Assembly (NCBI GenBank): GCA_964512225.1
Contig: CAZEKB010000023.1
Location: 6,771-70,770 of the forward strand
Source of the DNA: an uncultured Rickettsiales bacterium
GTDB lineage: Bacteria > Myxococcota_A > UBA796 > UBA9615
DNA: 64,000 bases
Direction of reading: 5' to 3'
Position 1 is the stretch's first letter; each line of letters begins with the position of its first letter. This document shows positions 12,625 through 59,040 of the stretch, piece after piece. Under the pieces are notes generated by a model. That model did no database searches. It was not told where the DNA came from and worked only from the letters and a program-made list of their open reading frames with translations. The position numbers and the translations under genes were made by a program.

Positions 12625-12678
12625 GGGCGAAGGGTAGCGGCGCGCGGTAGAACCGGGGGCCCCGCCGGGAGGTTCTTC

Positions 12679-21474: not shown

Positions 21475-21487
21475 GAAGAAGGCCCGC

Positions 21488-22366: not shown

Positions 22367-22370
22367 AGGC

Positions 22371-24736: not shown

Positions 24737-24740
24737 GACC

Positions 24741-27632: not shown

Positions 27633-27717
27633 CCGCGACACCCGCTCCTTCGTCGCTTATGTTGTAGGCGTTCAGGATCCCCGCCCGCCGATCGGCGAGC
27701 GGTCTGCAGGAGTTCGA

Positions 27718-39264: not shown

Positions 39265-39323
39265 GGACCCCAAGAGTAGACGACGACGGTCCCGGGGGCG
39301 GTGTCGGCGGGCATGATGCGACC

Positions 39324-40751
39324 GTGCAAACGGCCATCGTTCAGGCGGGGGCGGTCGACGAGTCGCTCGCGCTCTGCGACCTCGCCGGGGAGCTCGGAGC
39401 GGCGGGTCACGACGTCGGGCTCGTCCTCGAGGCGCAGGAGCCGGACTTCGAGGCCGCGGTCGCGCGGCTGGCCCCCGACGTCGTGTTCGTGCAGGCGGCG
39501 TTCATGGGCGAGCAGTGGGTCCGGCGGATCCTCCCCCGCCTGCCCCCGGGCGTCCCCGCCGTCCTCGTGGGCACCGCGGCGACGTTCGACCCCGACCTCG
39601 TCGTGCGGGTGGGGGCCTGGGGCGCGCTCCAGGGAGAGCTCGACGACTCCGGGCCCGCCCTGGTCGCTGCGCTCGCCGGGGGCGACCTCGCCGCCGTCCC
39701 CGGCCTGGTCCGGCCCGACGGCGTCGGGGGCACGACCGGCGTCCCCTGGGGCGATCCCCCGGGCGACCTCGACGTTCGACCGCTCCCGGACCGCGCGCTG
39801 TACTTCGACCGCTACCCCGCCCTCGGCCGGTTCCCCTGGAAGCGGTTCGCGACCGGCCGGGGGTGCGTCCACTCCTGCGGCTTCTGCTACCTGCCCGGCC
39901 TGCGCGAGAGCTACGGCGGGGCCCGCGCGGCGGTGCGGCGCAAGTCGGTGAGCCGGGTCATCGAGGAGGTGCGCGCGGTGCGGGCCCGCTGGCCGCTCAC
40001 GCACATCCACTTCGCCGACGACCTGTTCGCCCCGAAGCGGGCGTGGCTCGAGGAGCTGGCGGAGCGCTTCCCCCGGGAGATCGGCGTCCCCTTCTCCTGC
40101 AATACGTCGCCCGAGACGATCACGGAGCGCAACGCGGTGCTGCTGGGGATCGCGGGCGCGCGCGTGGTGGGGATCGGCCTCGAGACGGGCACCGAGCGCA
40201 ACCGCAGCGAGCTGCTCGGTCGGCCCACGAAGGACGCGGCCATCCGCGCGGCGGCGTCGCGGCTCAAGGCCCAGGGCGTGCGCCTGCTGACGTTCAACAT
40301 GATCGCGAACCCCGGCGAGACGGTGGAGGACGCGATCGCCACCGTGCGGCTCAACCAGGAGCTCGGCACGGACTTCCCCCGCATCAACCTGGCCTACCCC
40401 GCGCCCGGGTCGCACCTGGAGACGCTGATGGCGGAGCGGGGCATCCCCCCGATCGCCCCCGACGCTCACGAGCGCAGCGACTGGCGAGCGTGGTGCGCCG
40501 AGGGCGACCCGGTGCCCTACGAGGTCCTGGCTCGGCTGTTCCGCCTCGCCGTGCGCCGCCGCCTCCCCGAGCCCCTCCTGCGGCGCCTCATGACTCGGAT
40601 CCCGGACGCGAAGTGGTTGCTGCCTCTGGTCTTGTACGATGCGAGCGTCGAGATGCGGTGGAGCGGTGTCCCGTTGTGGGAGGCCGTGCGCTACGGGTGG
40701 CGAGTGGGCCCCCCGAATCGTCGCGTGACGTACCACGAGAGCCTCCCCTGA
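39324..40751 (+). CDS. B12-binding-domain radical SAM protein (class B rSAM)
   Basis: N-terminal Rossmann-like cobalamin-binding-type domain, then GRGCVHSCGFC (the CxxxCxxC rSAM cluster motif). GTG start. 475 aa. Confidence 0.85.
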   Translation: MQTAIVQAGAVDESLALCDLAGELGAAGHDVGLVLEAQEPDFEAAVARLAPDVVFVQAAFMGEQWVRRILPRLPPGVPAVLVGTAATFDPDLVVRVGAWGALQGELDDSGPALVAALAGGDLAAVPGLVRPDGVGGTTGVPWGDPPGDLDVRPLPDRALYFDRYPALGRFPWKRFATGRGCVHSCGFCYLPGLRESYGGARAAVRRKSVSRVIEEVRAVRARWPLTHIHFADDLFAPKRAWLEELAERFPREIGVPFSCNTSPETITERNAVLLGIAGARVVGIGLETGTERNRSELLGRPTKDAAIRAAASRLKAQGVRLLTFNMIANPGETVEDAIATVRLNQELGTDFPRINLAYPAPGSHLETLMAERGIPPIAPDAHERSDWRAWCAEGDPVPYEVLARLFRLAVRRRLPEPLLRRLMTRIPDAKWLLPLVLYDASVEMRWSGVPLWEAVRYGWRVGPPNRRVTYHESLP

Positions 40752-42205
40752 TGATCTGGAAGAAGCGCCCCGGGCGGCGCGACGAGAAGGCGACCAGGCG
40801 CTTCCCGGGGGCCGAGATCTCTCGGTCCGGGGCGGACCTCGTCGTGCCCGAGGGGGACGCCGACGACACATTCGACACGGGCGCCGAAGAGGCCCCGCTG
40901 GTCCTCATCGTGGTGGACGGCCGGCCCGGCGCGGCCGCTCCGGAGACGGCCTTCCGGGCGCTCGGCTACCGCACCCGGGTCGAGCAGTCCGGGCCCGACG
41001 CGGTGTTCGCGCTCGACTCGGAGTCGCCCGAGGTCGTATTCCTCGACTGCTGGCGGTCCGAGATGGACCCCATGTCCTTCCTGAACGTCGCCCAGCGGAT
41101 GCGCCCCGACCTCGGCGCGTCGGTCATCGCGCTCGTGCCGTCGGAGGACGACGGCTTCCGCAGAGCGCTCCTCGAGGACGCGGGCGTCGAGGCCCTGGTG
41201 TCGCCCCCCCTCACTGCGGGATCGGTGGCCGGGGCCGTGGGCCGGGTGCGCCTGCGCGAGCTCGCCCCCATCGGCGCGGCCACGGTCGCGGAGACCGAAG
41301 ACGTGGCGGTGGTGGAGGAGGCCGAGCCCTCGATGCGCGTGCAGGTCGTGCCGTCGGGCGAGGTGCGAGCCCCGGGCGAGGTGATCGACGGTCGGTACGA
41401 GGTCCTGGGCCTGTTCGGCAAGGGCGGGGCGGCCCACGTCTACCGGGTCAAGGACCGGGTCCGCGACGAGGAGCTCGCCCTCAAGCTGCTCAAGGCCAAC
41501 GCGCTCGACCCCCACGCGGAGCGGCGGTTCGAGCGCGAGCTGCGCATCCTCGCGTCGCTCGAGAACCCGAGCATCGTCCGCACCTACGACAACGGCCGCC
41601 TCGACGGTCGGCCCTACTTCACGATGGAGGCGCTGGACGGTCGCACGCTGCGCCGGTTCATGCGCGAGGTCTCGGCTCGCGACCTGTCCACCCGCTTCGC
41701 GATCGAGCTGCTGCTTCACATCTGCCGGGGGCTCGCGGCGACCCATCGGCTCGGCGTCATCCACCGCGACATCAAGCCGTCGAACCTCTTCGTCGTGGGG
41801 GACGGGCCCCAGGTCAAGCTGACGGACTTCGGCATCGCCCGGGACGACGATCCGAGCTCGGCGATGACGACGATCGGGATCGTCGTGGGCACGCCGGGCT
41901 ACGTCGCCCCCGAGCGCCTCGTCGTGGGCGGGCCGCACGCTCCGGCGTCCGACATCTTCAGCCTCGGCGTGGTGGGATACGAACTGTTCGCGCGGCGGCG
42001 TCCGTTCCAGGGGAGGAACCCGGCCGACCTGCTGCGCGCCATGACCGAGGAGTCTCCGATGCCGCTGACGAAGATCGATTCCCGTGTGCCCCACTCGCTC
42101 GACGCGCTGCTGCGCTCGATGGTCGCGCCCGAGCCCGGGCAGCGGCCGCGCAGCGTGGTCGACGTGGCCTCCGAGCTCCGGCGGATCCGGGCGGCTCTGC
42201 GATGA
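40751..42205 (+). CDS. Ser/Thr protein kinase with N-terminal receiver-like (pseudo-CheY) domain
   Basis: ATG overlaps the rSAM stop (TGATG). LVLIVVDG…VVFLDCWRSEMD. Kinase motifs GKGGAAHVYRV, HRDIKPSN, DFG, GTPGYVAPE. Confidence 0.8.
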   Translation: MIWKKRPGRRDEKATRRFPGAEISRSGADLVVPEGDADDTFDTGAEEAPLVLIVVDGRPGAAAPETAFRALGYRTRVEQSGPDAVFALDSESPEVVFLDCWRSEMDPMSFLNVAQRMRPDLGASVIALVPSEDDGFRRALLEDAGVEALVSPPLTAGSVAGAVGRVRLRELAPIGAATVAETEDVAVVEEAEPSMRVQVVPSGEVRAPGEVIDGRYEVLGLFGKGGAAHVYRVKDRVRDEELALKLLKANALDPHAERRFERELRILASLENPSIVRTYDNGRLDGRPYFTMEALDGRTLRRFMREVSARDLSTRFAIELLLHICRGLAATHRLGVIHRDIKPSNLFVVGDGPQVKLTDFGIARDDDPSSAMTTIGIVVGTPGYVAPERLVVGGPHAPASDIFSLGVVGYELFARRRPFQGRNPADLLRAMTEESPMPLTKIDSRVPHSLDALLRSMVAPEPGQRPRSVVDVASELRRIRAALR

Positions 42206-43248
42206 AACGCTTCCTGGTCGGCCTCCTCCCCGTCGCCCTCCTCGCCTGCGATCCGCCCCGGGAGGGGGACGAGCCCGGCGAGTGCAGCGACGGCATCGAC
42301 AACAACAACGACGGCGCGGTCGACTGCGCCGACGAGCAGTGCCTCCGGTCGCCGGACTGCGCCGGGGACGACGACGACGTGGTGGACGACGACGACGCGG
42401 TGGACGACGACGACGCGGTGGACGACGACGACGCGGGCCCGGGCGACTGGGTCGACATCACCGCCGGCGACTTCCACTCCTGCGCGCTCGACTCGAACGG
42501 GAACGTCGCGTGCTGGGGCTGGAACCACGCGGGCCAGGGCACCTCCCCCGGCGTCGCGTTCACGAACATCGGCGCCGGGTGGTCCCACACCTGCGGGCAG
42601 GACGAGGCGGGCGTCGTGCACTGCTTCGGCCGGGACGACGAGCTCGACTGGGGCCAGGGCGAAGCGCCGGAGTCGCCGTTCGCGAGCATGGGCGTCGGGT
42701 CCCACCACACCTGCGGCGTGGGCGAGGACGGCGCCTCCACCTGCTGGGGTCGCAACGAGGACGGGCAGACCGACGTCCCCGCGGGGGCCTACGTCGAGAT
42801 CCAGGGCGGCAAGTTCCACACCTGCGGGCTGCGCACCGACGGCGAGATCACGTGCTGGGGCGACGAGAGCGAGGGGCAGCTCGAGGCGCCCCCCGGCCCG
42901 TACGAGCACTTCGCGGTGGGCGAGTTCGCGGGGTGCGGCGTGCTCCGCAGCGGCGACGTCGTGTGCTGGGGGATCGACCAAGGCGACCTGCTGAGCCCCC
43001 CGCAGGAGCCGTTCACGGCCCTCACGGTCGGCAAGGCGCACGCCTGCGGCCTGAACGTCGGCGGGAGCGTGACCTGCTGGGGCGTGGGCCGCAGCGGCGA
43101 GACCGAGGTCCCCGCGGGGTCGACCTGGGTCGCGATCGACGCGGGATCGAGTCACACCTGCGGCATCACGACCGGCGGCGAGCTCGGCTGCTGGGGCAGC
43201 GACGAGACCGAGAAGGGCGAGGAGGTGGGTCAGTCGACCCCGCCGTGA
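42202..43248 (+). CDS. RCC1-repeat lipoprotein with poly-Asp linker
   Basis: ATGA overlap with the kinase. N-terminus MKRFLVGLLPVALLAC. Repeated HTCG…G.V.CWG RCC1 signatures (about 7 blades). DDDDVVDDDDAVDDDDAVDDDD linker. Confidence 0.8.
   Translation: MKRFLVGLLPVALLACDPPREGDEPGECSDGIDNNNDGAVDCADEQCLRSPDCAGDDDDVVDDDDAVDDDDAVDDDDAGPGDWVDITAGDFHSCALDSNGNVACWGWNHAGQGTSPGVAFTNIGAGWSHTCGQDEAGVVHCFGRDDELDWGQGEAPESPFASMGVGSHHTCGVGEDGASTCWGRNEDGQTDVPAGAYVEIQGGKFHTCGLRTDGEITCWGDESEGQLEAPPGPYEHFAVGEFAGCGVLRSGDVVCWGIDQGDLLSPPQEPFTALTVGKAHACGLNVGGSVTCWGVGRSGETEVPAGSTWVAIDAGSSHTCGITTGGELGCWGSDETEKGEEVGQSTPP
42367..42438 (+). repeat. Tandem 24-nt coding repeats (gtggacgacgacgacgcg) encoding poly-Asp
   Basis: Direct repeats visible in the sequence. 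Confidence 0.55.
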
Positions 43249-43258
43249 TCGAGAGCCG

Positions 43259-45859
43259 ATGACGGAGTCCTCGTCCGCGCGACGAAGCCTCGCCGTCGCG
43301 GCGGGGCGGGGCGCCTTCGCGGCGCCCTTCTTCGTCATGCCGGCGTTCCTCACGATCGACGCGCCGGACCTTCATCAGGGCCACGGAGTCCACGTCCAGG
43401 AGGCGATCGCGCTGGCGCTGCTCGGCGCCGTGATCGGGCTGGTCCGGGGCTTCGACGGGGGCGGGGGCGGGGCGGACTTCCTGCGGCGGCTCGGTCGGGC
43501 GGGGGCCGTGGTCCTGGGCGTCGCCGCGACGATCGCCGCGCTGCCGTGGATCGCCGTGCGGGCCGCCGACCGCGCGGCGGATCTGCTCGACGTCTTCCCC
43601 GCCGACGCTTACGGCTGGGGCGACCGGTACGTGCCGGACGCGCCGACCCTCGTCTTGATCGCGCTGGTCGCGATCGGCGAAGCGATCCGACGGCATCGCG
43701 GCGTCGCGTACGCGGGCCCGCACGTGGCCCTGATCGCCTGCGTCGGGGTCGCCGGGGCGCGGTTGGCCGAGCTCGCCGCCGTCGCCGGACCCGTCCCGCG
43801 GTGGGCGCTTTGGGGCCTCCTCGCCGCGCTGCTCCTGCCCCGGGGCGTGGCCTGGGAGGAGGCCCTCGACGCCGTCCCGGCCCGGGCGGCCCTGGCCGTC
43901 GCGGGCGTGCTCGCGGTGGGGGCCGTCGCCCCCCCGACGCTGCCGTCGCTGTTGCTCGACGCGGCGGTGGTCGCCATCGCCTGGAGGTTCGGCCAGTCCG
44001 GGCGCGGCGCGCTGCGGATCCCGCCGGAGCTGAGCACCCTCGGCTTCGCGGCGGCCGCGGTCTTCCTCGTCCCCGCGGCCTGGCTGCTGCTCACCGTGAT
44101 CCCCGCGGCGGCCGGGGCGCTTGCCTCGCTCTTCCCGGCCGAGCACCCGGACGGCTTCCGCGCCTTCGCCGCCTGGGTTCGCGTCCCCGCCATCGGCTTC
44201 GGGCTCGTGGGGCTCGCGCACGTCGTCCGCGGGGGCGATCGGCGCTGGGTCCTGGGGGCCGGGGCGTGGATCGCCGTGGGGTTCGTCGGCGCCGCCCTCG
44301 TGGGGGTGCTGTACGGCACGCCGGCGGCCGATCTCGCCTCGATCCTGCCGTCGCTCGGCGCGGGCGTCGCCGCCATCGCGCTCCTCCGCGGCCCCTCGCC
44401 GGCGGGGCGCGCGCTGGGGGCGGGCCCGGTGGTCCTGGCCGCCGTCGTGGGGGCGACCGCGGGGCGGATCGTATGCGCCTCCTTCCTCCCGATGATGTCG
44501 CCGGTCGCCTTGCAGCTCGGCGTCGGCGCGCTGATCGGGGGCTTCGCGGGTCGAGCCCTGGCGGGTCGACTCGAGGGGCCGCCCGACGCCCCCTGGGGGT
44601 ACGCGGGCACCCTCTTCGTGTGGGTGTATTCGGCCTACCTGCCCATGTTCGTGGCCGTCGCCTACGGGCTGCATCGGGAGTGGGTCCTGGCGGTGCTCGC
44701 GGTGGCCGCCGTCGTGCTCGCCACGACTCGGGTGCGGGCCCGCTGGGTGGTGTACGGCTGCTTCTACGCGACGTTCGCGATCGTCGCTTCGTTCAAGACG
44801 GGCCCGTCCGAGCAGCACTGCGCGACGGTGGCGGCGACGGGGGGCGCCGACCTGGTCTTCCCCCGGTTCGGGGCCGATCACGACCGCACCCTCGTGGAGC
44901 CCTACGACGTGCTCCCCGTGCGGGGGACGTCCCACGTGATCGTGGCGCAGAAGCGGTACCAGAAGACGGGCGGGCACCTCGCGCTGATCGACGTCGAGCG
45001 AGGCGTGGAGACGGGGCGGCTGCGGCCGGGCGACCTCCGCGTCCCCGGCAGCCCGGCCACCTGGCCCGAGCGGATGGAGTGGGACCCCCGGCGCGGCACC
45101 GCGTGGGTGCAGATCCTCGCCGGGGACAGCTACTCGATGTGGGAGGTCGCCGCGACGCCGGCGACGGCCCCGACCCGGCTCGAGCTCCGGCGGCGCGTGC
45201 CCCTGCTGTGGGAGCCCGGGAGCCCCGGCATCGACGAGCGCCTCGATCGGCTCGTGGTGTCGCTCGTGCCCAACCGGGAGGAGAGCGCGCCCCCGCTGCT
45301 CGGCGCGTACGACCTCGAGACGCTCAAGGGCCGGCTGCCCGACCGACTCGCCGACGACGCGCGGGGCGTGTTCGAGATGGCCGACTACGTGGCCGTCGAC
45401 GCGTGGTCGGGTGCCTACTACGTGCCCGCGTTCATCGACCTCGTCCGCTTCGCGATCGTGGAGGTGAGCGCGGAGGACGGGCGCAGCCTTCGCCGTCGGG
45501 AGACCTTCCACCCCACCGTGGGCCTCGCCGCCGACGGGCGCCGGGGGCGGATCCACCTCACCAACTCGATGGCGAGCACCCTCGACATCCGGTCCACGGC
45601 GGACCTCCGCCTCCTGCAGCGCCTGCCCACGGGGGCGTTCCCCCGGGACGTCGTCTTCGACGCCGACCGGGGCCTGCTCTTCGTCGCGGGGTACGGCGAC
45701 GGCGTGGTCACCACCTTCGACGTCGCCGGCGCGGAGGCCCGCCCCGTCGCGGAGGTCCGCCTGGGCCCCCTGCTCCGCGGGTTGGGGCTGGATCCCGTGA
45801 GCGGGCGCGTCTTCGGCGCGTCGGGGTGCGGGGTCTTCGAGGTGCCGACGGCCCGGTGA
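43259..45859 (+). CDS. Membrane protein: N-terminal about 12-TM domain plus C-terminal β-propeller-like domain (866 aa)
   Basis: Hydrophobic Ala/Gly/Leu/Val-rich N-terminal half with many predicted helices. The C-terminal half is soluble. Starts 10 nt after the RCC1 gene. Confidence 0.55.
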   Translation: MTESSSARRSLAVAAGRGAFAAPFFVMPAFLTIDAPDLHQGHGVHVQEAIALALLGAVIGLVRGFDGGGGGADFLRRLGRAGAVVLGVAATIAALPWIAVRAADRAADLLDVFPADAYGWGDRYVPDAPTLVLIALVAIGEAIRRHRGVAYAGPHVALIACVGVAGARLAELAAVAGPVPRWALWGLLAALLLPRGVAWEEALDAVPARAALAVAGVLAVGAVAPPTLPSLLLDAAVVAIAWRFGQSGRGALRIPPELSTLGFAAAAVFLVPAAWLLLTVIPAAAGALASLFPAEHPDGFRAFAAWVRVPAIGFGLVGLAHVVRGGDRRWVLGAGAWIAVGFVGAALVGVLYGTPAADLASILPSLGAGVAAIALLRGPSPAGRALGAGPVVLAAVVGATAGRIVCASFLPMMSPVALQLGVGALIGGFAGRALAGRLEGPPDAPWGYAGTLFVWVYSAYLPMFVAVAYGLHREWVLAVLAVAAVVLATTRVRARWVVYGCFYATFAIVASFKTGPSEQHCATVAATGGADLVFPRFGADHDRTLVEPYDVLPVRGTSHVIVAQKRYQKTGGHLALIDVERGVETGRLRPGDLRVPGSPATWPERMEWDPRRGTAWVQILAGDSYSMWEVAATPATAPTRLELRRRVPLLWEPGSPGIDERLDRLVVSLVPNREESAPPLLGAYDLETLKGRLPDRLADDARGVFEMADYVAVDAWSGAYYVPAFIDLVRFAIVEVSAEDGRSLRRRETFHPTVGLAADGRRGRIHLTNSMASTLDIRSTADLRLLQRLPTGAFPRDVVFDADRGLLFVAGYGDGVVTTFDVAGAEARPVAEVRLGPLLRGLGLDPVSGRVFGASGCGVFEVPTAR

Positions 45860-45902
45860 GTCGCGCCGGCGACACGCGCGCGCCGCCCCGTGATAGACCC
45901 CC

Positions 45903-46775
45903 GTGATGCTTCGCCTCCTGCTGTTCGCCTCGTTGCTTTCGCTGGCGGTCGGATGCCCGGCCGAGCGACCCAGCGAAACCCCCGCTCCCGCAGGCCCCTC
46001 CGCGTCGCCTTCCGAGGTCCGGCCCCGGGCGGTGACCGTGAGCGTTCGCCCCCACGCGACGCTGCCGTCGGAGTCCGCCCTCGTCTTCCTGGGCTTCGCC
46101 GACGCGGACGTGGACGGCGGGCACCCGAAGCAGCGCAAGCTGCCGAACTGGTACTGGAGCAGCGAGCGGCTCGAGATCCGGCCCGAGATGAAGCTCCAGG
46201 TCGACATGCCCGACCGGACGAACCTCATCGTGATCGTCGACGCCAACGAGGACGGGCGGCCTTCGCCCGGAGAGCGAAGCACCCAGATGCTCCGCGGACC
46301 CGGCGACGCGGCGACCTTCACGGCGACGATCGATCGTTCGTTCGGGGAGCTGTGGGGGGACGTGCGCCTCAGCGACGTCGACCCCTCCGAGGGTTCGGGC
46401 GTGGACGCGGCGCCGGGCCGCAGCACGACGTTCCGGATCGACGCGGATCCGCGGGTCAAGGTCGCGGGGGGGAGCATCCTGTTCGTGGGCTACGAGGACA
46501 CCGAGCTCGAGGGCGGCAAGCCCATGCCCGACGCGCAGGCCTGGTTCTTCTGGAGGGTGATCCAGGACGAGATCACCTGGCCGATGACGGTCGCCGCGCG
46601 CGTCCCCCGCGAGGGCAAGTACTTCGTGGTGGTCGATCTCGACGGGGACGCGCAGGCCGGCCTCGGGGATCTCACGACCCCGGCGCTCGCCCCTCCGGAC
46701 CCCCGGACCGGGACGGACGCGCTGGAGGTGGTCCTGGACCGGACGTGGACCTTCGCCGAGGAGGAGGAGGAGTGA
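45903..46775 (+). CDS. Lipoprotein (290 aa), function unknown
   Basis: N-terminus MMLRLLLFASLLSLAVGC. Ends EEEEE*, overlapping the hslO start. Confidence 0.65.
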   Translation: MMLRLLLFASLLSLAVGCPAERPSETPAPAGPSASPSEVRPRAVTVSVRPHATLPSESALVFLGFADADVDGGHPKQRKLPNWYWSSERLEIRPEMKLQVDMPDRTNLIVIVDANEDGRPSPGERSTQMLRGPGDAATFTATIDRSFGELWGDVRLSDVDPSEGSGVDAAPGRSTTFRIDADPRVKVAGGSILFVGYEDTELEGGKPMPDAQAWFFWRVIQDEITWPMTVAARVPREGKYFVVVDLDGDAQAGLGDLTTPALAPPDPRTGTDALEVVLDRTWTFAEEEEE

Positions 46776-47638
46776 CCGATCGGCTGCTGCGCGGGATCTC
46801 GCGCGACAAGCTCCACCGCGTCTTCGTGGCCCGCACCACCGAGGCCGTCCGGGAGGCGACCGCCCGGCACCAGCTGGCGGGGGTGCCCGCGATGGCCCTC
46901 GCCCGCGGCATGACCGCCGCGCTGATGGCGGCGGTCACCGACCCCGAGTGGCACCGCGTCTCCTTTCAGTGGGCGACGCGGGCGGCGCTGGGGACGATGC
47001 ACGTGGACGTGCGGGCGCCCGGTGATCTGCGGGGGTACGTGAGCCTCGCCGAGGACGCCGCCGAGTCCGTCGGTCGGCCGCTGATCGACTGGGTCCGGCC
47101 CGGCCTCCTGGTCGCGCTCCGGCAGGAGGCCTCGGGGCGCTTCTCCCAGGGACAGATCCCGATCGATCCGGGCGAGGTCGACGTGGACGTCGAGACCTAC
47201 CTGCGACGCAGCGAGCAGGTCGCTTCCGGGCTGCGCGTGCTCGCCACGGAGGACGCCGCGGGCGGGCCTCGCGAGGTGGTCGGCGTGCTGGTGCAGACGC
47301 TCCCGGGCGGAGACCCGGGGCGCGCGATCCTGCCCGACGAGCTCCGCGAGCGGACGCGGGCTCCGGGTCCCCTGAACGACATCGCCGCCGCCGCGCTGCC
47401 GGGCCTGGCCATCGACATCCTCGAGGAGACGCCCCTGCGCTTTCAGTGCGCGTGCAGCCGGTCCCGGGTGGAGATGAGCATCCGCCTGCTCGGGGCGTCC
47501 GACCTCGAGCAGATGATCGCCGCGGGCGAGTCCACGGCGGTGCGGTGCGAGTTCTGCGCGGCGGTCTACGACGTGGGCGTCCCCGACCTCGCGCGCATCC
47601 TGCAGGGCCTGCGCGAGCACCCGATCGGCGAGGCCTGA
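46772..47638 (+). CDS. hslO: Hsp33 redox-regulated chaperone
   Basis: GTG start overlapping the upstream stop and preceded by GGAGGAGGAGGAG. C-terminal zinc centre CAC…(n)…CEFC (CxC…CxxC). Confidence 0.85.
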   Translation: MTDRLLRGISRDKLHRVFVARTTEAVREATARHQLAGVPAMALARGMTAALMAAVTDPEWHRVSFQWATRAALGTMHVDVRAPGDLRGYVSLAEDAAESVGRPLIDWVRPGLLVALRQEASGRFSQGQIPIDPGEVDVDVETYLRRSEQVASGLRVLATEDAAGGPREVVGVLVQTLPGGDPGRAILPDELRERTRAPGPLNDIAAAALPGLAIDILEETPLRFQCACSRSRVEMSIRLLGASDLEQMIAAGESTAVRCEFCAAVYDVGVPDLARILQGLREHPIGEA

Positions 47639-47642
47639 CGGG

Positions 47643-48182
47643 CTAGGACGGGGCCGCGGCCTCCCAGGCGGCGTAGGCCTGCTCCCCGAACAGCACGAAG
47701 TCGATCGCCTCGAGCGCGCCCGCCTCCGCGCGGCACGTCGCCCACGCGATCTCCGCCGCTTCGTCCAGGGGGTAGCCGTACACGCCGCACGAGATGGCGG
47801 GGAACGCGATCCGACGCAGGCCGCGCTGGTCGGCGAGCCGCAGGGTGCTCCGGTACGCGGACTCGAGCAGCGGCGCCGAGGCTTCCGGCGATCGGTAGAC
47901 GGGGCCGACGGTGTAGAGGACCCACGACACGCGGAGTCGACCGAAGGCGGGCGTGATCCGAGCTTCGCCGGTGGGGCAGCGCACGCCGAGGGCGACCTGG
48001 GGCACCGCCTCGCAGGCCTTCCGCAGCGCCTTCCCGGCGGCCCGGTGGATGGCGCCGTCCACCCCGCCGCCGCCGAGCATGCCCTCGTTCGCCGCGTTCA
48101 CGATCGCGTCGCCCTCCCACTCGGTCAGGTCGCCCCGGATCAGGGTGGTCGTGCAGGCTGCGGTGAGGGCGAAGGTGCGCAC
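47643..48182 (-). CDS. Macro domain protein (O-acetyl-ADP-ribose deacetylase, YmdB-like)
   Basis: AIVNAANEGMLGGGGVDGAIHRAAG signature. Confidence 0.85.
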   Translation of the reverse strand: MRTFALTAACTTTLIRGDLTEWEGDAIVNAANEGMLGGGGVDGAIHRAAGKALRKACEAVPQVALGVRCPTGEARITPAFGRLRVSWVLYTVGPVYRSPEASAPLLESAYRSTLRLADQRGLRRIAFPAISCGVYGYPLDEAAEIAWATCRAEAGALEAIDFVLFGEQAYAAWEAAAPS

Positions 48183-48215: not shown

Positions 48216-50498
48216 CTACTCGGGGTAGCTGAGCTCGAGCCCGTCCTCCCAGCCGTCGGGCACGGGATCGGGCTTCACCTTGCGGTCCACGTGCACCTTC
48301 CCGCCGTCGAGCAGGGCGCCGAACAGCAGCTCGTCGGCCAGGACCTTGCGGATGTGCTCGTGGATCACGCGCGACATCGGCCGGGCCCCGAACTTCGGGT
48401 CGTAGCCCTTCTTCGCGAGCCACTCCTTGGCGGCGTCGGTGACCTCGAGGGCGACCTTCTTGTCGGCGAGCTGGCCGTCCAGCTCCAGCAGGAACTTGTC
48501 GACGACCATGCGCACGACGTCCGGGGGCAGGCCCTTGAACTGCACGATCCCGTCGAGCCGGTTGCGGAACTCGGGGCTGAACACCCGCTCCAGCGCCTTG
48601 TTCTTGCCCTGCTTGGCCCCCGGCGCGCCCCCGCCGAACCCGACCTTGTTGCGGTCCGCGTCTCGGGCGCCCGCGTTCGTCGTCATGATGATGACGACCG
48701 AGCGGAAGTCGGCCTTGCGGCCGTTGTTGTCGGTGAGCGTGGCGTGGTCCATGACCTGCAGCAGGATGTTGAACAGGTCCGGGTGCGCCTTCTCGATCTC
48801 GTCGAGGACGAGGACCGAGTGCGGGTTCTTGACGATCGCGTCCGTGAGCAGGCCGCCCTGATCGAAGCCGACGTAGCCCGGGGGCGCGCCGATGAGGCGG
48901 CTCACCGTGTGCTTCTCCATGTACTCGGACATGTCGAAGCGCAGGAAGTTGACGCCCATGACCGACGCCAGCTGCTTCGCCAGCTCGGTCTTGCCGACGC
49001 CGGTGGGGCCCGAGAACAGGAAGCTGCCGATGGGCTTGTCCGGCGCGCCGAGGCCGCTGCGGTTCATCTTGATCGCGGCCGTGACGGTCGAGATCGCGTC
49101 GTCCTGCCCGAAGATCAGGAGCTTCAGGTCCCGCGCCAGGTCCTTGAGCTTGACCTTGTCGTCCTTGCTGACGGTGCGCGGGGGGATGCGCGCGATCTTC
49201 GCGACGACCTGCTCGATGTCCTTCGGGCGGATCGTCTTGCGGCGCCGGTGCGCGGGCTGGAGCATCACGTAGGCGCCGGCCTCGTCGAGCACGTCGATCG
49301 CCTTGTCCGGCAGCTTGCTGTCGTTGATGTGGCGCGCCGCCAGCTCGGCCGCCGCCCGCAGGGCCGCGGTGGTGTAGCGGATCCCGTGGTGCTCCTCGTA
49401 CCGGTCCTTGAGTCCCTGGAGGATCTTGACCGTCTCTTCCACCGTCGGCTCCACGATGTCGATCTTCTGGAAGCGACGCGCGAGCGCTCGGTCCTTGCCG
49501 AAGGCGGACTTGTACTCGGCGAAGGTCGTGGACCCGATGCAGCGGAGCTCGCCGGAGCTGAGGGCGGGCTTGAGCATGTTGCTCGCGTCCATCGTCCCGC
49601 CGGACGTGGCCCCGGCGCCCACGACGGTGTGGATCTCGTCGATGAACAGGATGTTGTCCGGGTCCCCGGTGATCGTCTCGATCAGGGCCTTCAGTCGCTC
49701 CTCGAAGTCGCCGCGGAAGCGGGTGCCGGCGAGGAGCGAGGCCATGTTCAGCGAGTAGAGCTTCGCGTTCAGCAGGACCTCGGGGACCTTGCCCTCGTGG
49801 ATCGCGAGGGCGAGCCCTTCGGCGATCGCCGTCTTGCCGACGCCGGGGTCCCCGACCAGCACGGGGTTGTTCTTCCGACGCCGACACAGGACCTGGACGG
49901 TGCGCTCGATCTCGGCGTCGCGGCCGATGAGCGGGTCGATCTTCCCCTGCGCGGCGCGGTCGATCAGGTCGATGCAGAAGCTGCCCAGCGGGTCCGACAG
50001 GGCGCCTTCGCGCTCGCCGTCTTCGCTCACGCCCTTCGGCGTCTTGGACGTGACCCCGCCGGTCCCGTCCTTGGTGATCCCGTGGGAGATGAAGTTCACG
50101 ACGTCGAAGCGCGTGACCTCCTGCTGCTCGAGGAAGTAGACCGCGTTGCTCTCCTCTTCGCGGTACATCGCCACGAGGAGGTTGCCGGCGTTGATCTCGT
50201 CGCGGCCCGAGCTGCGGGTGTGCATGGCGGCCCGCTGCAGTACGCGGCGGAAGGAGATCGTCTGCTGGGGCTCGATGTCGGCGCCCTCGGGCAGAGGCTC
50301 GACGTCCTCGCTGAGGAACGCCGTGAGCTGGGCCCGCAGCTCCTCCAGGTCGGCGTCGCAGGCGCCGAGGATGTCCTTGGCCGTGGTGTCGTCCAGCATC
50401 GCCAGCAGGAGGTGCTCGAGCAGCAGGTACTCGTGGCGCATCTCCATCGCGGTCTCGACGGCGCGGCGAAGGGTCTCTTGGAGCTCTCGGGTCAGCAT
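48216..50498 (-). CDS. clpA: ATP-dependent Clp protease ATP-binding subunit ClpA
   Basis: Two AAA+ modules (GDPGVGKT and GPTGVGKT Walker A) and an N-terminal Clp_N repeat. 760 aa. Confidence 0.95.
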
Positions 50499-50978: not shown

Positions 50979-51299
50979 CTATTCGGCTTCCATCGAGCAC
51001 TGCAGGGGGAACTCGTGCCGCTGGGCCGCGGCGAGGACCTGCTGCACCTTGGTCTCGGCGATCTCGTGGGTGAAGACGCCGGCGATCCCCACCCCGTGGT
51101 GGTGCACGTGCAGCATCACGCGCGTCGCGTCCACTTCGTTGAGGCGGAAGAGCTGCTGCAGGATGGCGACCACGAACTCCATGGGGGTGTAGTCGTCGTT
51201 GTGCAGCAGGACCTTGTAGCGCTTGGGGCGCTTGGTCTTGGGCTTTTCCTTGGTGGCGACGCCGCCCTTCCGGCGGGTGCCCGTCTGATCGTCGGCCAT
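50979..51299 (-). CDS. clpS: ATP-dependent Clp protease adaptor ClpS
   Basis: YKVLLHNDDYTPMEFVV…MLHVHHHGVGIAGVFTHEIAETK. 106 aa. Confidence 0.9.
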   Translation of the reverse strand: MADDQTGTRRKGGVATKEKPKTKRPKRYKVLLHNDDYTPMEFVVAILQQLFRLNEVDATRVMLHVHHHGVGIAGVFTHEIAETKVQQVLAAAQRHEFPLQCSMEAE

Positions 51300-52469: not shown

Positions 52470-54233
52470 GTGCCGCGGCTGCTCCTGATCGTCGGACTGA
52501 TCCTGCTCGTCCCCGTCGCCACCGCGGCGGAGGACGTCGAGCCCGCGGCCTCCGAGCCCGCCTACGAGCCCGCCTCCGAGCCCGCCGTCGAGCCCGCCGA
52601 CGAGTCCCGCTCGGACGCCCGCGTCGCCCTCGCCGAGGAGCGCTGGGACGACGCGCTGGCCGCCGCCGAAGCGGCCCTCCGCGCCGACCCCGCGGACTAC
52701 GACGCCCTCCTCGTGAAGGCCCTCGCCTACGAGGGTCGCGGCGATCTCGAGCGCGCCGAGTCCCTCCTCGTGGCCTTCCAGGAGCTGGTCTCGGGGCGGC
52801 TGATCCCCAAGGAGGCCAACGACGCTCTCGACCGGGTGCGGGCCGCCCGTCGCGAGGAGGGATCGACGCTCGCGGCCGCGGAGGTCGCGGCCCCGGAGGA
52901 CGAGGTCGAGGTCGACCTGCTCGTCCGCTCCGACCTGCACCCCGACGAGGTCGAGGCCCTGACCCGCCGGATCCGCGAGGCGGTGGAGGCGGGCCGATGC
53001 ATGGCCGCGATCGCCGACGCGAAGTCGATCGTGGACGCCGCGTTCGACGACCCGCGCGGCTGGGCCCTGCTCGGCGACGCGCGGCGCTGTGCGGGCGACA
53101 CCCTCGGCGCCGTCGACGCGTACCGGCGGGCGCGGGCGCTGGGCAGCGACGACCCCGGCGTCCTCGTCGTGCTCCGCAGCCTCGAGGCGACCTTCGGGGA
53201 GCTGCGGGTGCGGGTGGTGCTCGACCGTCCGCTGGAGGTCCCGCGCGTGGTCCTGCACATGGGCGATCGCGAGCGGAAGCCGGACTTCCGCCGCGGCGGC
53301 GAGTCCGTGTTCCGCGATCTCGACTCGCCGGGCACGTTCACCCTCGTCGTGAGCGGGCTCGGCCTGCGAGAAGAGGTGCGGGCCGTCGATCCGCTGGCCC
53401 CGGGCGAGCATCGCCGGGTCGAGATCGAGACGACGTACGTGGGCGTCGGCACGCTGAAGGTGGGGCCCCACGAGCCGTCGGACTGCCGCGTGCGGGTGCG
53501 CGACGCGAACGGGCCCGAGGTCGGCCCCGGGGGCGTCGTGGAGGTCACGGCGGGGGACGTCCGCGTCTACGTCTCCAACGAGTACGGCACTCTCACCCAC
53601 CACGTCCGCGTGCCCCCGGGCGAGACGGTCGAGATCGACCCCCTGCCGCTGGTTCCGTCCACGCTGACGGTCGTCGGCCTGCCCGTGGGGTCGACGGTCC
53701 GGGCGTACGTGGACGGGATGCAGGAGGGGACGTACGCGGAGCGGGAGGTGCGCGTCGACCGGGAGGGCGCGACGGTGGACGACGAGACCGGCGTCCTCAT
53801 CGCGCCGCCCCTGCGCATGGGCCCGCTCATGGGCGGCAGCGGGGGGATCTTCCTGGAGCACCCGCGCCTCGGGGTCGCGGCGGCGGACGTCTCCCTGCAG
53901 CCCGGCCGAGTGAACGCCACGACCTTCGCGTGGCGCACGCTCGAGGGGGTCGACGGGGTCAAGGACGAGTTCGCCCGGTGGAAGAACACGCAGGAGGGGC
54001 GCCGGTCGATGCGCGCGCCGCCCTGGGTGCCTCCGTTCGCCGTGGGGATCGGCTCCGCGTTGGTGGCGGGGGCCCTGCTCGCGGGGGGGCTCGACACCTA
54101 CGACGACGGCCTGTTCGCGAGCTCCGCGGGGACCGGGATCGTCTCGGGGATGGCCTTCGGGATCGCGATCGGGGTGGGCGTCGCCTCACCGCCCCGGGAG
54201 GCCTGGTCGGCCTGGCGTCCAGAGGGGTTCTGA
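52470..54233 (+). CDS. Secreted TPR-like protein with acidic N-terminal repeats and a C-terminal TM anchor
   Basis: GTG start. Signal peptide MPRLLLIVGLILLVPVATAAEDV, EPA-rich repeats, TPR-like helical region, and a C-terminal hydrophobic segment. Confidence 0.6.
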   Translation: MPRLLLIVGLILLVPVATAAEDVEPAASEPAYEPASEPAVEPADESRSDARVALAEERWDDALAAAEAALRADPADYDALLVKALAYEGRGDLERAESLLVAFQELVSGRLIPKEANDALDRVRAARREEGSTLAAAEVAAPEDEVEVDLLVRSDLHPDEVEALTRRIREAVEAGRCMAAIADAKSIVDAAFDDPRGWALLGDARRCAGDTLGAVDAYRRARALGSDDPGVLVVLRSLEATFGELRVRVVLDRPLEVPRVVLHMGDRERKPDFRRGGESVFRDLDSPGTFTLVVSGLGLREEVRAVDPLAPGEHRRVEIETTYVGVGTLKVGPHEPSDCRVRVRDANGPEVGPGGVVEVTAGDVRVYVSNEYGTLTHHVRVPPGETVEIDPLPLVPSTLTVVGLPVGSTVRAYVDGMQEGTYAEREVRVDREGATVDDETGVLIAPPLRMGPLMGGSGGIFLEHPRLGVAAADVSLQPGRVNATTFAWRTLEGVDGVKDEFARWKNTQEGRRSMRAPPWVPPFAVGIGSALVAGALLAGGLDTYDDGLFASSAGTGIVSGMAFGIAIGVGVASPPREAWSAWRPEGF

Positions 54234-54299: not shown

Positions 54300-56402
54300 A
54301 TCGCTCGTTTCGAGCCCGGACAACAGATCGGGACGTACACCCTGCGGCGCAAGCTGGGGCAGGGTGCGTACGCCGAGGTGTGGCTGGCCGTCCAGGAGGG
54401 GGGCACGCTCGGCTTTCGCAAGAAGGTCGCGCTGAAGCTCGTCCGTCCGGGCAAGGAGGACGACGACGACGAGACCCAGGCCTTCCTCCGCGAAGCGAGC
54501 CTGGTCGCCAACCTGCGGCACCCCAACATCGTCGACACGCTGAGCGTCTCCCAGGAGGGCGGCACGCTCCACATCGCGATGGAGTTCGTGGACGGCGGCA
54601 CGCTCCACGACCTCGTGAACCGGTGCCTGCGGTTCGGGCTCGCGCTCCCGAACTCCGTGGTGTGCTCGCTCCTGATCGACATCTGTCGCGGCCTCGCCGC
54701 GGCCCACGAGGCGGAGGACGTGGACGGTCACCCCCTCAAGGTGATCCACCGGGATCTCAAGCTCGGCAACGTGCTGCTGGACAAGACCGGGGTCGCCAAG
54801 GTCGCGGACTTCGGCATGGCCAAGGCGGCGGGGGACATGACCGCCACCGCCACCGGCTTCGTGAAGGGGACGCCCGCGTACGTCGCCCCCGAGGTCTGGG
54901 AGGGGGCGCGTGAGTTCACCCCCGGCGTCGACCTGTTCGCGGTCGGGTGCATCGCCTACTCGCTGGTCACGCGCAAGCGGCTCTTCGACGGCGAGAACGT
55001 CGCGTCGATCTACGGGCAGATCTGCAAGCGGAGCCCCGAGCAGGAGTCCGCTCCGGTGGGCGACAAGTACCCCGGCCTCGCCCCCATCACCGAGAAGCTC
55101 CTCCAGCGAGACCCGGCCGATCGGTATCAGCGGGCCAAGGACGTCGCCGACGACCTGCTCGAGCTCCTCCGGCGGACGCCCGCGGCGGGGGAGATCCACG
55201 ACTTCCTGTGGCTGCTCGACCGGATCGAGGCGTACGAGTCCGACGTGGACGCCGAGGACGAGACGCACGGGGCGGCCCCGTTCAAGATCCCCGAGCAGAC
55301 CGAGGCGGGCTGGGCCGTCGCCATCGAGCGCGCGCTGGGGCAGAGCGTGGGCGTGCTCCCCCTGGCGACGTCCGGCGGCGCGGTGGAGCTGCCCACCCCC
55401 GAGCGACCGCCCTCGAACAAGCCCGTCCAGCTGACCGCGCCCCAGGCTTCGGCGGTCGAGGGTCCCCCGCCCACGCCGCCGACCCCGCCGCCGAAGAGCG
55501 GGGAGGTCCTGCGCACCCAGCTCCTGCCGCCCCGCGACTCCGAGGGTGCGGGCGAGCGCACGTCGATGAACGTCGAGCTCGCCCTCAAGGCGGACAAGAG
55601 CGCGCGGATCGAGGCCCGCAAGCGCAAGCAGCGGGTGGTGCAGTCCCGCCGTCGGCTGCAGATGGTGATCCTCGTGCTGGTGGGCGTGCTGGCGGTGATC
55701 GGCGGCCTCATCCTCGGCCGGGAGGACACCGAGGAGGGGGCCGGGGAGTCGGCCGAGCAGGGGGAGCCGGCGGCGGTGCCCGACCTGATGATCGTGCGGG
55801 ACGACGGGGAGGAGGCGTCCGGCGAGGCGTCTCCGGACCCGGCCTCGGGCGAAGCGGCGGGCGAAGAGCCGGCGGATGCGAGCCCGGAGGCGGGGTCGTC
55901 CGAGGAGGCCGAGGGGACGCCGGGGGCGGACGCCGACGCGGCGGACGCGGAGCCGGAGGCGACCCCGGCGGACGGGGATGCGCCCGGGGAGGACGCCGAG
56001 GCCGCGGGGGAGGACGCCGAAGCGCCTGCCGAAGAGGGCGAGGCGGCCCCCGACGGCGAGGCCGCGGGCGACGGTGGGAGCGAGACCGAGGACCCGGCCG
56101 CCGAGACCGAAGCGACCCCCGCCGAGGCGGGCTCGACCGACGCGTGCGTCGTGGTCAGCGCCTCCCCCCGGGGGGCGAAGGTCTGGATCGACGGAGCGCT
56201 GAACGACCGGTCCGCGGGGTCGCCGTTCGGGGTCGTGGTCCCCGCCGGTGAGCATCGCGTGCAGATGGGGATGGTGAGCACCCCGAGCGTCGAGCAGACG
56301 GTCACGATCGGGGGCGGCGAGGCCAAGTCCGTGCACTGCACGCTCACGGGCGAAGCGGGCTGTCGCACCGCCGCCGCCGACATCGCCGCCTGCGGGCTCT
56401 GA
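54300..56402 (+). CDS. Ser/Thr protein kinase, single-pass TM, acidic low-complexity spacer, C-terminal PEGA domain
   Basis: Kinase motifs HRDLKLGN, DFG, GTPAYVAPE. TM helix MVILVLVGVLAVIGGLILG. PEGA-like SPRGAKVWIDGALNDRSAGSPFGVVVPAGEH. The first canonical start is GTG at 54378, which is downstream of the glycine-rich loop (GQGAYAEV); the listed start assumes an ATC at 54300 preceded by a GGAGG. Confidence 0.7.
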   Translation: MARFEPGQQIGTYTLRRKLGQGAYAEVWLAVQEGGTLGFRKKVALKLVRPGKEDDDDETQAFLREASLVANLRHPNIVDTLSVSQEGGTLHIAMEFVDGGTLHDLVNRCLRFGLALPNSVVCSLLIDICRGLAAAHEAEDVDGHPLKVIHRDLKLGNVLLDKTGVAKVADFGMAKAAGDMTATATGFVKGTPAYVAPEVWEGAREFTPGVDLFAVGCIAYSLVTRKRLFDGENVASIYGQICKRSPEQESAPVGDKYPGLAPITEKLLQRDPADRYQRAKDVADDLLELLRRTPAAGEIHDFLWLLDRIEAYESDVDAEDETHGAAPFKIPEQTEAGWAVAIERALGQSVGVLPLATSGGAVELPTPERPPSNKPVQLTAPQASAVEGPPPTPPTPPPKSGEVLRTQLLPPRDSEGAGERTSMNVELALKADKSARIEARKRKQRVVQSRRRLQMVILVLVGVLAVIGGLILGREDTEEGAGESAEQGEPAAVPDLMIVRDDGEEASGEASPDPASGEAAGEEPADASPEAGSSEEAEGTPGADADAADAEPEATPADGDAPGEDAEAAGEDAEAPAEEGEAAPDGEAAGDGGSETEDPAAETEATPAEAGSTDACVVVSASPRGAKVWIDGALNDRSAGSPFGVVVPAGEHRVQMGMVSTPSVEQTVTIGGGEAKSVHCTLTGEAGCRTAAADIAACGL

Positions 56403-57103: not shown

Positions 57104-57718
57104 ATGCGGACGCCGCTGCCCCCGGACGCCGAGCTCATCGCCGCGCTGCGCGGCGGGGACGATGCCATGTTCGGGGCGATGCTCGACCACTGGACGCCGA
57201 GCCTCCGCCGCCTCGCCCGGTCGTTCGTGCGCACCGACGCGTCGGTCGAGGACGTGGTCCAGGAGACCTGGGCGGCGGTCGTGAAGGGCCTCGCCCGCTT
57301 CGAGGGGCGCAGCTCGCTCAAGACCTGGGTGTTCACCATCCTCGCGAACCGCGCGCGGACCCGGGGCGCCAAGGACGCGCGGACGGTCCCCGAGTCGGCC
57401 CTGTCCGAGCCCGGGGAGGCCTCTCCGATCGCCGATCGGTTCACCGATCGGGGGACGTGGCTGAAGCCGCCTCGACGATGGCAGGACTTCTCGGCCGAGG
57501 CCGTGACCCTGTCCAAGGAGACGGCGGAAGCCCTCGAGGCGGCCATCGAGGCGCTCCCTCCGCGCCAGCGGGCGGTCGTACTCCTGCGTGACGTGGAGGG
57601 CGTCGAGGCGCAAGATGCGTGCAACCTTCTGGAGATCAGCGAATCCAACCAGAGGGTGCTACTTCACCGCGGACGCAGTCGGTTGCGCTCGGCGCTGGAG
57701 CAGCACCTCGGAGAGTGA
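57104..57718 (+). CDS. ECF (σ70 family group IV) RNA polymerase sigma factor
   Basis: σ2 region VQETWAAVVKGLARFEG…WVFTILANRARTR and σ4 region RQRAVVLLRDVEGVEAQDACNLLEISESNQRVLLHRGRSRLR. Confidence 0.85.
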   Translation: MRTPLPPDAELIAALRGGDDAMFGAMLDHWTPSLRRLARSFVRTDASVEDVVQETWAAVVKGLARFEGRSSLKTWVFTILANRARTRGAKDARTVPESALSEPGEASPIADRFTDRGTWLKPPRRWQDFSAEAVTLSKETAEALEAAIEALPPRQRAVVLLRDVEGVEAQDACNLLEISESNQRVLLHRGRSRLRSALEQHLGE

Positions 57719-57730
57719 CCGACCCGGACG

Positions 57731-59031: not shown

Positions 59032-59040
59032 GGAGCTCTC

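Follow-up and report, generated by a model that had tools for sequence, protein, structure and literature searches.

A radical SAM-kinase gene pair within a probable lineage-specific mosaic of six genes in an uncultured Myxococcota-like bacterium

The six genes and their junctions

A stretch of 64,000 nucleotides of contig CAZEKB010000023.1 (64 kb, hereafter the window) carries, at positions 39324-47638, six consecutive plus-strand genes for a radical SAM (S-adenosylmethionine) enzyme (rSAM), a Ser/Thr kinase, an RCC1-repeat lipoprotein, an 866-aa transmembrane (TM) protein, a 290-aa repeat lipoprotein and the chaperone Hsp33. The source is an uncultured, high-GC, Myxococcota-like marine bacterium, and GC is 72-78% around the six genes. 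An earlier note on this DNA had read the string as a coupled operon and as one redox/radical-linked envelope system. Its gene map holds: the same six open reading frames (ORFs) appear in the public gene calls on two identical metagenome contigs (L001 and L002; ENA ERZ23498639 and ERZ23498913), which the GC3-based caller used on the window reproduces, and all five junctions were re-read from the sequence as it had given them. The stop codon of the rSAM gene and the start codon of the kinase gene share one nucleotide in TGATG (40749-40753), the kinase and RCC1 genes overlap in ATGA (42202-42205), the gene for the 866-aa protein is flanked by gaps of 10 nt (43248 to 43259) and 43 nt (45859 to 45903), and the last two genes overlap in GTGA (46772-46775). 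The assigned identities stand for the rSAM, the kinase, the RCC1 protein, Hsp33 and both lipoproteins; the "TM beta-propeller" is only partly shown, and the B12-binding match of the rSAM lies below its cut-off. Coordinates are collected in Table 1.

Table 1. Features of the six-gene locus and its flanks, in window coordinates
Feature	Position	Strand	Basis or remark
Giant PMT_2 (GT-C) polytopic membrane protein, 1,538-1,541 aa	34648..39264	-	PMT_2 domain; divergent from rSAM, outside the coordinates of the earlier note
Divergent intergenic region, 59 nt	39265..39323	.	sequence
Radical SAM enzyme, 475 aa	39324..40751	+	Pfam, AF2, Foldseek
Soluble Hanks-type Ser/Thr kinase, 484 aa	40751..42205	+	Pkinase
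Pseudo-receiver domain of kinase, residues 51-151	40901..41203	+	weak Response_reg match, PDB matches
RCC1-repeat lipoprotein, 348 aa	42202..43248	+	RCC1_2, lipobox
866-aa TM/YVTN-like protein	43259..45859	+	hydropathy, profile match
290-aa repeat lipoprotein, no Pfam family	45903..46775	+	lipobox AVGC
Hsp33 (HslO-type) chaperone, 288 aa	46772..47638	+	HSP33
Macro-domain protein	47643-48182	-	convergent to Hsp33; right-hand backbone anchor
ClpA	48216-50498	-	right-hand backbone anchor
ClpS	50979-51299		beyond ClpA; right-hand backbone anchor

Tight spacing carries little information in this genome. Among the 33 co-directional neighbour pairs of the window, 12 overlap and another 14 are separated by 0-50 nt (26/33 together), so the spacing of the six genes is not exceptional; overlapping stop and start codons are the default in so compact a high-GC genome and no mark of functional systems. 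Promoter and terminator scans returned no plus-strand sites, and a sigma-70 scan returned none, such scans being uninformative at 73% GC. An Rfam scan at gathering thresholds gave no match anywhere in the window.

Gene order in relatives

Relatives were gathered as 80 genomic loci fetched with an rSAM profile (L numbers here), with extra contigs added by exact-protein look-up, and every window protein was compared against the fetched loci for identity and gene order. The records of metagenome-assembled genomes (MAGs) behind several high-GC, Myxococcota-like loci (L003, L005, L008, L019, L036 and others) are titled "uncultured Rickettsiales", "Enterobacterales" or "Klebsiella pneumoniae", labels that look wrong and were given no weight in the taxonomy. 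The Myxococcota/Deltaproteobacteria placement is based instead on the NCBI names of P0012 and P0025 and on gene content.

The complete six-gene order is found only on the window's own contigs, L001 and L002; relatives share two, three or five of the genes. The closest, L003 (rSAM 90% and kinase 81% identical), lacks the 866-aa protein, whose place is taken by a PMT_2 paralogue (837-aa type, minus strand); in L087 nothing beyond the rSAM and kinase genes is shared. The 290-aa lipoprotein and Hsp33 occur together in relatives that have no upstream kinase, RCC1 or TM genes. Gene order in the relatives thus divides the string into three units: the rSAM and kinase, with or without the RCC1 protein; the TM/YVTN protein; and the lipoprotein with Hsp33. 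It would appear that the six genes are a lineage-specific mosaic in a variable stretch of chromosome, with no single conserved functional system, a reading to which we give a probability of roughly 0.6. The families to which the six genes belong are known; the lineage-specific arrangement is new.

The mosaic sits on a chromosomal backbone that can be followed through the relatives. On the left the order is cytochrome oxidase genes, a hexapeptide protein, in some cases a Rieske oxygenase, a giant PMT_2 protein (minus strand), often an SGNH/GDSL gene (minus) and the rSAM gene (plus). On the right come variable genes, a short PMT_2 paralogue (minus), the repeat lipoprotein, Hsp33 (plus) and ClpA-ClpS (minus), with ClpA 72-94% identical and adjacent in L003, L007, L008 and L009. 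Against this backbone the soluble kinase gene would have been inserted directly behind the rSAM gene in a shallow clade and become translationally coupled to it through the one-nucleotide overlap; the RCC1 lipoprotein gene usually follows the kinase gene in that clade; in the window alone, the membrane/YVTN protein occupies the place that the short PMT_2 paralogue has in L003; and Hsp33 would sit here by synteny.

The earlier note's alternative is that the six genes co-evolved as one redox/radical-linked envelope signalling or modification system, in which the rSAM makes or senses a radical signal, the receiver-kinase transduces it, an envelope trio acts and Hsp33 protects the components. All six genes do run in one direction, overlapping or lying no more than 43 nt apart, and the plus strand showed no terminator-like site (in the scan already described as uninformative at this GC); three of the products are envelope proteins, and Hsp33 keeps its redox-switch cysteines. 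Against this, the set is whole on the window's own contigs alone, it is broken in so close a relative as L003 and reduced to two genes in L087, its last two genes persist where the middle ones are missing, and its spacing is typical of the genome. We regard this single-system proposal, which gene order in the relatives largely refutes, as very improbable. The apparent redox envelope signalling operon is better described as a syntenic backbone with recent insertions, and recognizing it as such averts an over-reading.

Hsp33 itself is a normal-looking member of a family of cytosolic oxidative-stress holdases. It matches HSP33 (PF01430) at 3.6e-47 (161.5 bits, profile positions 1-271 of 273) and has the zinc motifs FQCAC (CxC) and RCEFC (CxxC). 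Homologues occur in L003, L008, L083, L085 and L089 at 42-85% identity; because the gene is kept in relatives without the upstream genes, its presence gives no redox theme to the string. The 290-aa lipoprotein adjoins Hsp33 in L003 and L008, and ClpA in L009. It consists of two repeats of about 120 aa, and a search at E<=1e-3 among 1.84e9 proteins yields a family of 58 representatives with one to four such stretches and one outlier with 13. Pfam gave no consistent domain on 22 members, with stray EF-hand-like matches in two. Members of the family (P0199-P0256, with window 45903-46775) share W residues and WP pairs at conserved positions, along with D-x-D-rich stretches of Ca-binding-like character.

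The 866-aa protein is a recent arrival at this position. A hydropathy scan finds about 12-13 TM segments in residues 1-495, and the C-terminal part is probably an all-beta, YVTN-like repeat domain: with a three-sequence profile, a stretch of about 100 residues (751-850) matches 1l0q_A, a surface-layer propeller of the YVTN type, at 4.9e-7, and Pfam assigns no family, giving Lactonase at E=0.016. The AlphaFold2 (AF2) model, built with three homologues, has a pLDDT of 36.7 and is unusable beyond a beta-rich secondary-structure pattern. A word-indexed search of 5.8e9 clusters finds three clusters in the family. The relatives P0197 and P0198 lie elsewhere, in a context conserved between the two (genes for proteins of 517 aa, of 783/789 aa on the minus strand and of 640 aa, then the TM protein), and P0198 comes from the same sample as L087, on a different contig.

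The kinase and its pairing with the rSAM gene

The kinase has a Pkinase match of 1.2e-45 (156.4 bits against a cut-off of 31.7). Its motifs GKGG, ALK, HRDIKPSN, DFG and APE are intact and conserved in the orthologues, and it has no TM segment. Residues 51-151 match Response_reg (PF00072) at E=0.011 (16.4 bits, under the cut-off of 30.2), and the region has 30 PDB matches at E <= 10, every one to a receiver-domain protein, whether a response regulator or a hybrid kinase aligned through its receiver, the best at 1e-3. Aligned with two true receiver-kinases, the region shows D56-G57 at the acidic pair, keeps the acceptor D99, and has V129/P130 at the Thr site and S151/P152 at the Lys site. Half of the acidic pair, the Thr and the Lys are thus lost from the catalytic quintet, in agreement with the earlier description of a degenerate receiver (VDG/LD, no conserved Lys). 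With the acceptor Asp kept and these other residues lost, the domain is more probably a docking or dimerisation module than a phospho-acceptor, as judged from sequence. Fusions of a receiver (REC) with a Pkinase domain exist elsewhere (P0104 and P0170), so the architecture is not new; what is new is the degenerate receiver and the fixed position behind the rSAM gene. Orthologues of the whole kinase are restricted to P0076-P0079 (70-100% identity), the next best match being 37% over the kinase domain alone. A kinase resembling that of the window, at 36% over residues 68-466 and so including part of the receiver region, occurs in L045 (3164-4321, with 7634-8986), from the same MAG as L005, whose 68% rSAM orthologue has no kinase. 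Between the L045 kinase gene and a 37% rSAM paralogue 3.3 kb downstream of it there are at least two ORFs.

Only rSAM genes whose product is 80% or more identical to that of the window have the kinase gene beside them: those of the window itself, L003, L087/L088 (rSAM 85%, kinase 67-70%) and L097 (rSAM 80%, kinase 73-77%), so that the pair spans 80-100% identity in the rSAM and 67-81% in the kinase. Every one of these loci has the same one-nucleotide overlap, CC(C/T)TGATGG, on contigs from at least four samples or assemblies. Among rSAM relatives at 59-70% identity (L004-L011, L083, L085, L089) no kinase, RCC1 or TM protein gene is adjacent, and the gene 3' of the rSAM gene differs by sub-lineage: a 384-aa protein, a YHYH protein, a TPR protein or, on the opposite strand, a urocanase. 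The rSAM-kinase pair is therefore a genuine, inherited unit of a shallow clade. The expectation that it be conserved in relatives is borne out within that clade, down to the identical overlap, and fails in the 59-70% relatives. That the overlap is kept over about 30% divergence of the kinase, while the downstream genes changed, suggests selection for co-expression.

The downstream neighbour is less constant. Orthologues of the RCC1 lipoprotein follow the kinase in L003 (76-77%) and L097 (61%) and not in L087, which has instead a 431-aa protein, a NACHT NTPase and a PLD protein. The window's RCC1 protein matches RCC1_2 at 3.7e-42 (141.5 bits against a cut-off of 22) with five repeats, which place it among the RCC1-repeat beta-propellers; it also has an acidic double-disulfide repeat and a poly-Asp linker. 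Its lipobox is LLAC and that of the 290-aa lipoprotein AVGC (MKRFLVGLLPVALLAC and MMLRLLLFASLLSLAVGC), both read from the translations.

The pair might have a function of its own. In that case the rSAM and the pseudo-receiver kinase would form a true module of two genes, or of three with the RCC1 protein, in which the kinase phosphorylates the rSAM or the neighbouring GT-C protein, or responds to the product of the rSAM, coupling the tailoring of an envelope glycoconjugate to Ser/Thr signalling. The identical overlap in four or five independent contigs, across kinases at 67-81% identity and with differing genes downstream, favours such a module, as do the intact catalytic motifs in 4/4 kinase orthologues and the RCC1 gene that follows in 3/4 lineages. 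The coupling nevertheless has a single evolutionary origin, with no independent recurrence seen among the loci; kinases lie within 7 kb of distant rSAM homologues at 5/70 loci, a frequency that by our own estimate, given two kinases in this 64 kb, does not exceed what kinase density predicts. We therefore hold a dedicated module to be a tentative proposal, with the odds clearly against it. The earlier note had called the pairing "not a described signalling module", and no description of one turned up in the literature consulted (reviews of B12-rSAM enzymes, GT39 and Myxococcota, the myxobacterial kinome, and B12-rSAM/glycosyltransferase clusters), in which the rSAM-kinase pairing was not itself searched for. 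If the pair is functional, it would represent a new way of regulating radical chemistry.

The second Hanks kinase behind the figure of two per 64 kb is a 674-aa protein (54378-56402, plus strand), located 3' of a gene for a 587-aa TPR protein (52470-54233) and 5' of an ECF sigma/zf-HC2 anti-sigma pair (57104-58039). It also serves as a control for another reading of the first kinase, in which it belongs to anti-phage defence (PD-T4-6/Stk2-like) and came to lie in a variable island downstream of the rSAM gene. The PADLOC models for PD-T4-6 match the window kinase at 1.6e-73, and in L087 the kinase is followed by the NACHT NTPase and the PLD-family protein, which matches DrmC models. The same PADLOC models, however, match the second window kinase and the unrelated kinases P0104 and P0117 as well or better, which makes the match generic, and the NACHT protein, the 431-aa protein and the other five genes of the string have no PADLOC match. 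The defence reading was rejected on these controls, and we consider it very improbable.

The rSAM, its probable envelope context and known systems

The rSAM matches Radical_SAM (PF04055) at 4e-15 (56.8 bits against a cut-off of 29.5). Its CxxxCxxC motif (C181/C185/C188) is invariant in 21 homologues, and these three canonical cysteines are the only invariant ones, which gives no sign of an auxiliary cluster. The match to the B12-binding family PF02310 is weak (23.8 bits, below the cut-off of 32.1); residues 1-140 nonetheless have a beta-alpha Rossmann pattern in the AF2 model, with pLDDT above 90 there. The model as a whole (21 homologues; pLDDT 87.8, pTM 0.89) has three parts: an N-terminal Rossmann (B12-like) domain, a TIM-barrel core with the CxxxCxxC motif and a helical C-terminal domain. 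Foldseek against the PDB places it best with MgmA (9ccb, 8e-19), TsrM (6wtf, 6e-18) and AprD4 (6fd2, 7e-18), and also with OxsB, CysS and TokK, at E-values of 1e-18 to 1e-14 and TM-scores of 0.6-0.67, methylases not being separated from non-methylases. AprD4 has the same class-B-type fold without cobalamin (PMC12931638), so "class B" describes the architecture of the rSAM and is no cofactor assignment.

By sequence, the best relatives are HpnJ (1e-18) and AprD4 (2e-12), both enzymes of glycoside rearrangement or dehydration, and the sole matches in the PDB are AprD4 (6fd2, 2e-11) and MgmA (5e-4). All curated equivalog scores are 5- to 20-fold under their cut-offs: 67.4 bits against 577.6 for HpnJ (TIGR03471), 52.7 against 360 for the ladderane-type B12 rSAM (TIGR04072), 46.9 against 500 for AprD4 (NF033070) and 44.8 against 450 for BzaD; the HpnJ, AprD4 and ladderane matches cover the core alone, about residues 113-373. 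A search at E <= 1e-10 among 5.8 billion clusters yields a family of 75 clusters, nearly all of them unnamed MAG or metagenome sequences, in which the few lineage labels are Deltaproteobacteria or Myxococcota and the C-terminal tail ...RVTYHxSLP is conserved.

Upstream of the rSAM gene, the element GCATGATGCG (window 39300-39323) is common to the window, L003 and L087; it includes a -10-like CATGAT that ends 6 nt before the GTG start. In the 59-70% clade GCTATC(G/C)T stands in the same place, and overall the -10-like element lies 6-9 nt before the rSAM start (loci inspected: L003, L005, L006, L009, L010, L083, L087, L089). Its conservation suggests that the rSAM gene may be transcribed from a promoter of its own, into an mRNA that is leaderless or nearly so. 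The window also encodes another radical SAM protein, with DUF3641 (2e-52; 58036-59391, minus strand), adjoining a truncated-looking AhpC/TSA-like gene.

Whether the enzyme groups with methylases or with peptide-modifying enzymes, a question raised in the earlier note, is answered in part: the fold is class-B-type, within which methylases do not separate, and matches to the rSAMs of ribosomally synthesized and post-translationally modified peptides (RiPPs) are weak. These matches (ApyD 3.8e-10 and rSAM_ocin_1 5.5e-5 in NCBIfam, with LanL/LanKC for the kinase domain) could suggest an rSAM that matures a RiPP, in a cluster making a modified peptide and with a kinase acting as in class III/IV lanthipeptide synthetases. 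All of the scores are far under their cut-offs. There is moreover no room for a precursor gene (a 59-nt gap lies upstream of the rSAM gene and an overlap downstream), lyase, cyclase, protease and exporter are all missing, lanthionine synthetase domains are absent from the kinase, and the neighbourhoods of rSAM homologues are of the glycan/lipid type. The RiPP reading was accordingly rejected for want of a precursor ORF and accessory genes, and we rate it the least probable of those considered.

The glycan/lipid character emerges from a census that took in every gene lying up to 7 kb from 70 homologues at 28-55% identity. B12-rSAM paralogues are the most frequent entry (149, up to seven per locus, in L069), followed by GT2 glycosyltransferases (13 loci), NAD sugar epimerase/dehydratases (8 loci), an unknown 458-aa family and rSAM-SPASM proteins (7 loci each), and LPG_synthase_TM, SAM methyltransferases and sulfatase-family proteins (6 each), ahead of the five loci with protein kinases. 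One homologue (48%) has GH31, Lip_A_acyltrans/Polysacc_deac and methyltransferase genes as neighbours. The array in L069, a Zixibacteria MAG, holds up to seven B12-type rSAM paralogues in about 13 kb (2304-15482); others are found in L078, L059, L048 and L092. Such distant arrays often hold GT2, epimerase, LPG_synthase_TM, methyltransferase and sulfatase-family genes.

In the window clade the most informative conserved partner of the rSAM is the giant GT-C protein on the other strand, outside the coordinates that the earlier note had covered. Its PMT_2 domain (1.6e-12) occupies residues 1013-1140, and the protein has about 20 hydrophobic segments; a PDB sequence search found no match, and a test for internal duplication was negative. 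The N-terminal half, polytopic and about 770 residues long, has no match in Pfam or the PDB and is no duplicate of the C-terminal half. A giant PMT_2 protein lies near the rSAM gene in L003-L010, L085, L087 and L089 (41-76% identity), and adjoins or is near it in about 12 of the 14 loci with an rSAM at 59% identity or more. A paralogue of its C-terminal half, about 837 aa long, recurs in relatives and is missing from the window. Between the giant PMT_2 and rSAM genes, a gene of similar length (about 310-340 aa) is present in L005, L006, L009, L010, L085, L087 and L097 (annotated as a GDSL/SGNH lipase in L087, L088 and L097) and absent from the window and L089.

Taken together, the GT-C neighbour in the window clade and the glycan/lipid neighbourhoods of distant homologues lead us to infer radical tailoring of an envelope sugar or glycolipid, and the most likely role of the rSAM is thus to tailor an envelope glycoconjugate. 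Acting on the head group of a glycolipid or on a sugar, the enzyme would carry out either a C-methylation or a rearrangement of the AprD4/HpnJ type, and the product would feed an envelope glycoconjugate pathway, possibly with the neighbouring GT-C enzyme. The kinase would perhaps be a clade-specific regulatory add-on, co-expressed with the rSAM. A stronger version makes the rSAM, the pseudo-receiver kinase and the RCC1 lipoprotein a clade-specific module, in which translational coupling wires Ser/Thr phosphorylation to the tailoring of an envelope glycoconjugate with the giant GT-C protein; we think this unlikely, more so than the less specific two- or three-gene module discussed above.

Several points weigh against the combination of a mosaic, a glycoconjugate-tailoring rSAM and an add-on kinase. 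The adjacency of the rSAM and PMT_2 genes may be mere synteny: other genes intervene (the SGNH/GDSL gene in most relatives, 4 kb in L003), and L083 has no PMT_2 gene. The census concerns paralogues at 28-55% identity that may have other substrates. The overlap with the kinase gene is kept down to about 70% kinase identity while everything downstream has changed, so that calling the kinase an "add-on" may undersell a functional tie that is real. The relatives are without exception contigs from MAGs or metagenomes, whose taxonomy labels are unreliable, and a substrate of the rSAM, cobalamin binding by it and a common transcript are at most predicted. A narrow rSAM clade of class-B fold that recurs beside a giant GT-C protein, and whose distant relatives lie in multi-rSAM sugar/glycolipid clusters, may hint at as yet unknown chemistry of envelope glycoconjugates among uncultured marine bacteria of Myxococcota-like type.

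Elsewhere in the window, a sugar-nucleotide trio (9198-11958, plus strand), made up of a GT2, an NTP_transferase and a CDP-glucose 4,6-dehydratase-like epimerase/dehydratase (184 bits against a cut-off of 278), lies 27 kb from the rSAM gene and may be a source of a deoxy-sugar donor. On either side of it, 91-8595 (minus strand) and 12679-19268 hold several very large genes with few or no family matches: those of a 1,078-aa protein are limited to Big_13/REJ/Big_7, and proteins of 1,003, 461, 775 and 1,432 aa have no Pfam match. Seven successive genes at 19743-28515 (122 and 186 aa on the minus strand; 292, 597, 191, 963 and 265 aa on the plus strand) have no Pfam match at 1e-4. GC is at its lowest for the window in the first half of this run (0.67-0.70 at 20-24 kb), and the run may be an island of unassigned function.

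Each component can be set beside a known type. The class B enzymes MgmA, TsrM, OxsB, CysS and TokK, the cobalamin-free AprD4 and, by sequence, HpnJ share the three-part architecture and the CxxxCxxC motif of the rSAM; identity to the solved class-B-type structures is 15-21%, and the rSAM forms a narrow clade of its own. The fusions P0104 and P0170 share domain order, overall length, acceptor Asp and a complete kinase domain with the window kinase, which differs in having DG for DD, in the loss of Thr and Lys, in a receiver below the Pfam threshold, in an extra N-terminal tail of about 45 residues and in its fixed place behind the rSAM gene. Hsp33 has the full-length HSP33 match and the intact CxC...CxxC zinc centre of the Hsp33/HslO chaperones, but scores below the NCBIfam HslO equivalog cut-off (148 bits against 244), and in this lineage its gene has a repeat lipoprotein gene in front of it, the two overlapping in the window. 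The giant protein resembles the PMT_2/ArnT-like GT-C enzymes in the PMT_2 domain and polytopic topology of its C-terminal half, yet at 1,541 aa it is twice the usual size and its N-terminal half matches no family.

At the level of gene clusters, the domain set around the distant homologues resembles that of the hpnA-I-J-K-L clusters, which tailor glycolipid head groups in hopanoid side-chain modification. The GT2, NAD sugar epimerase and LPG_synthase_TM families are shared. Membership in an Hpn cluster was rejected for the distant neighbourhoods, which score 77 bits against 368 for HpnA, have no HpnL or HpnI match and show no squalene-hopene cyclase, and the resemblance is kept as an analogy. 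The window clade differs from the hpn clusters in the nature of the partner, which here is a GT-C (PMT_2) protein.

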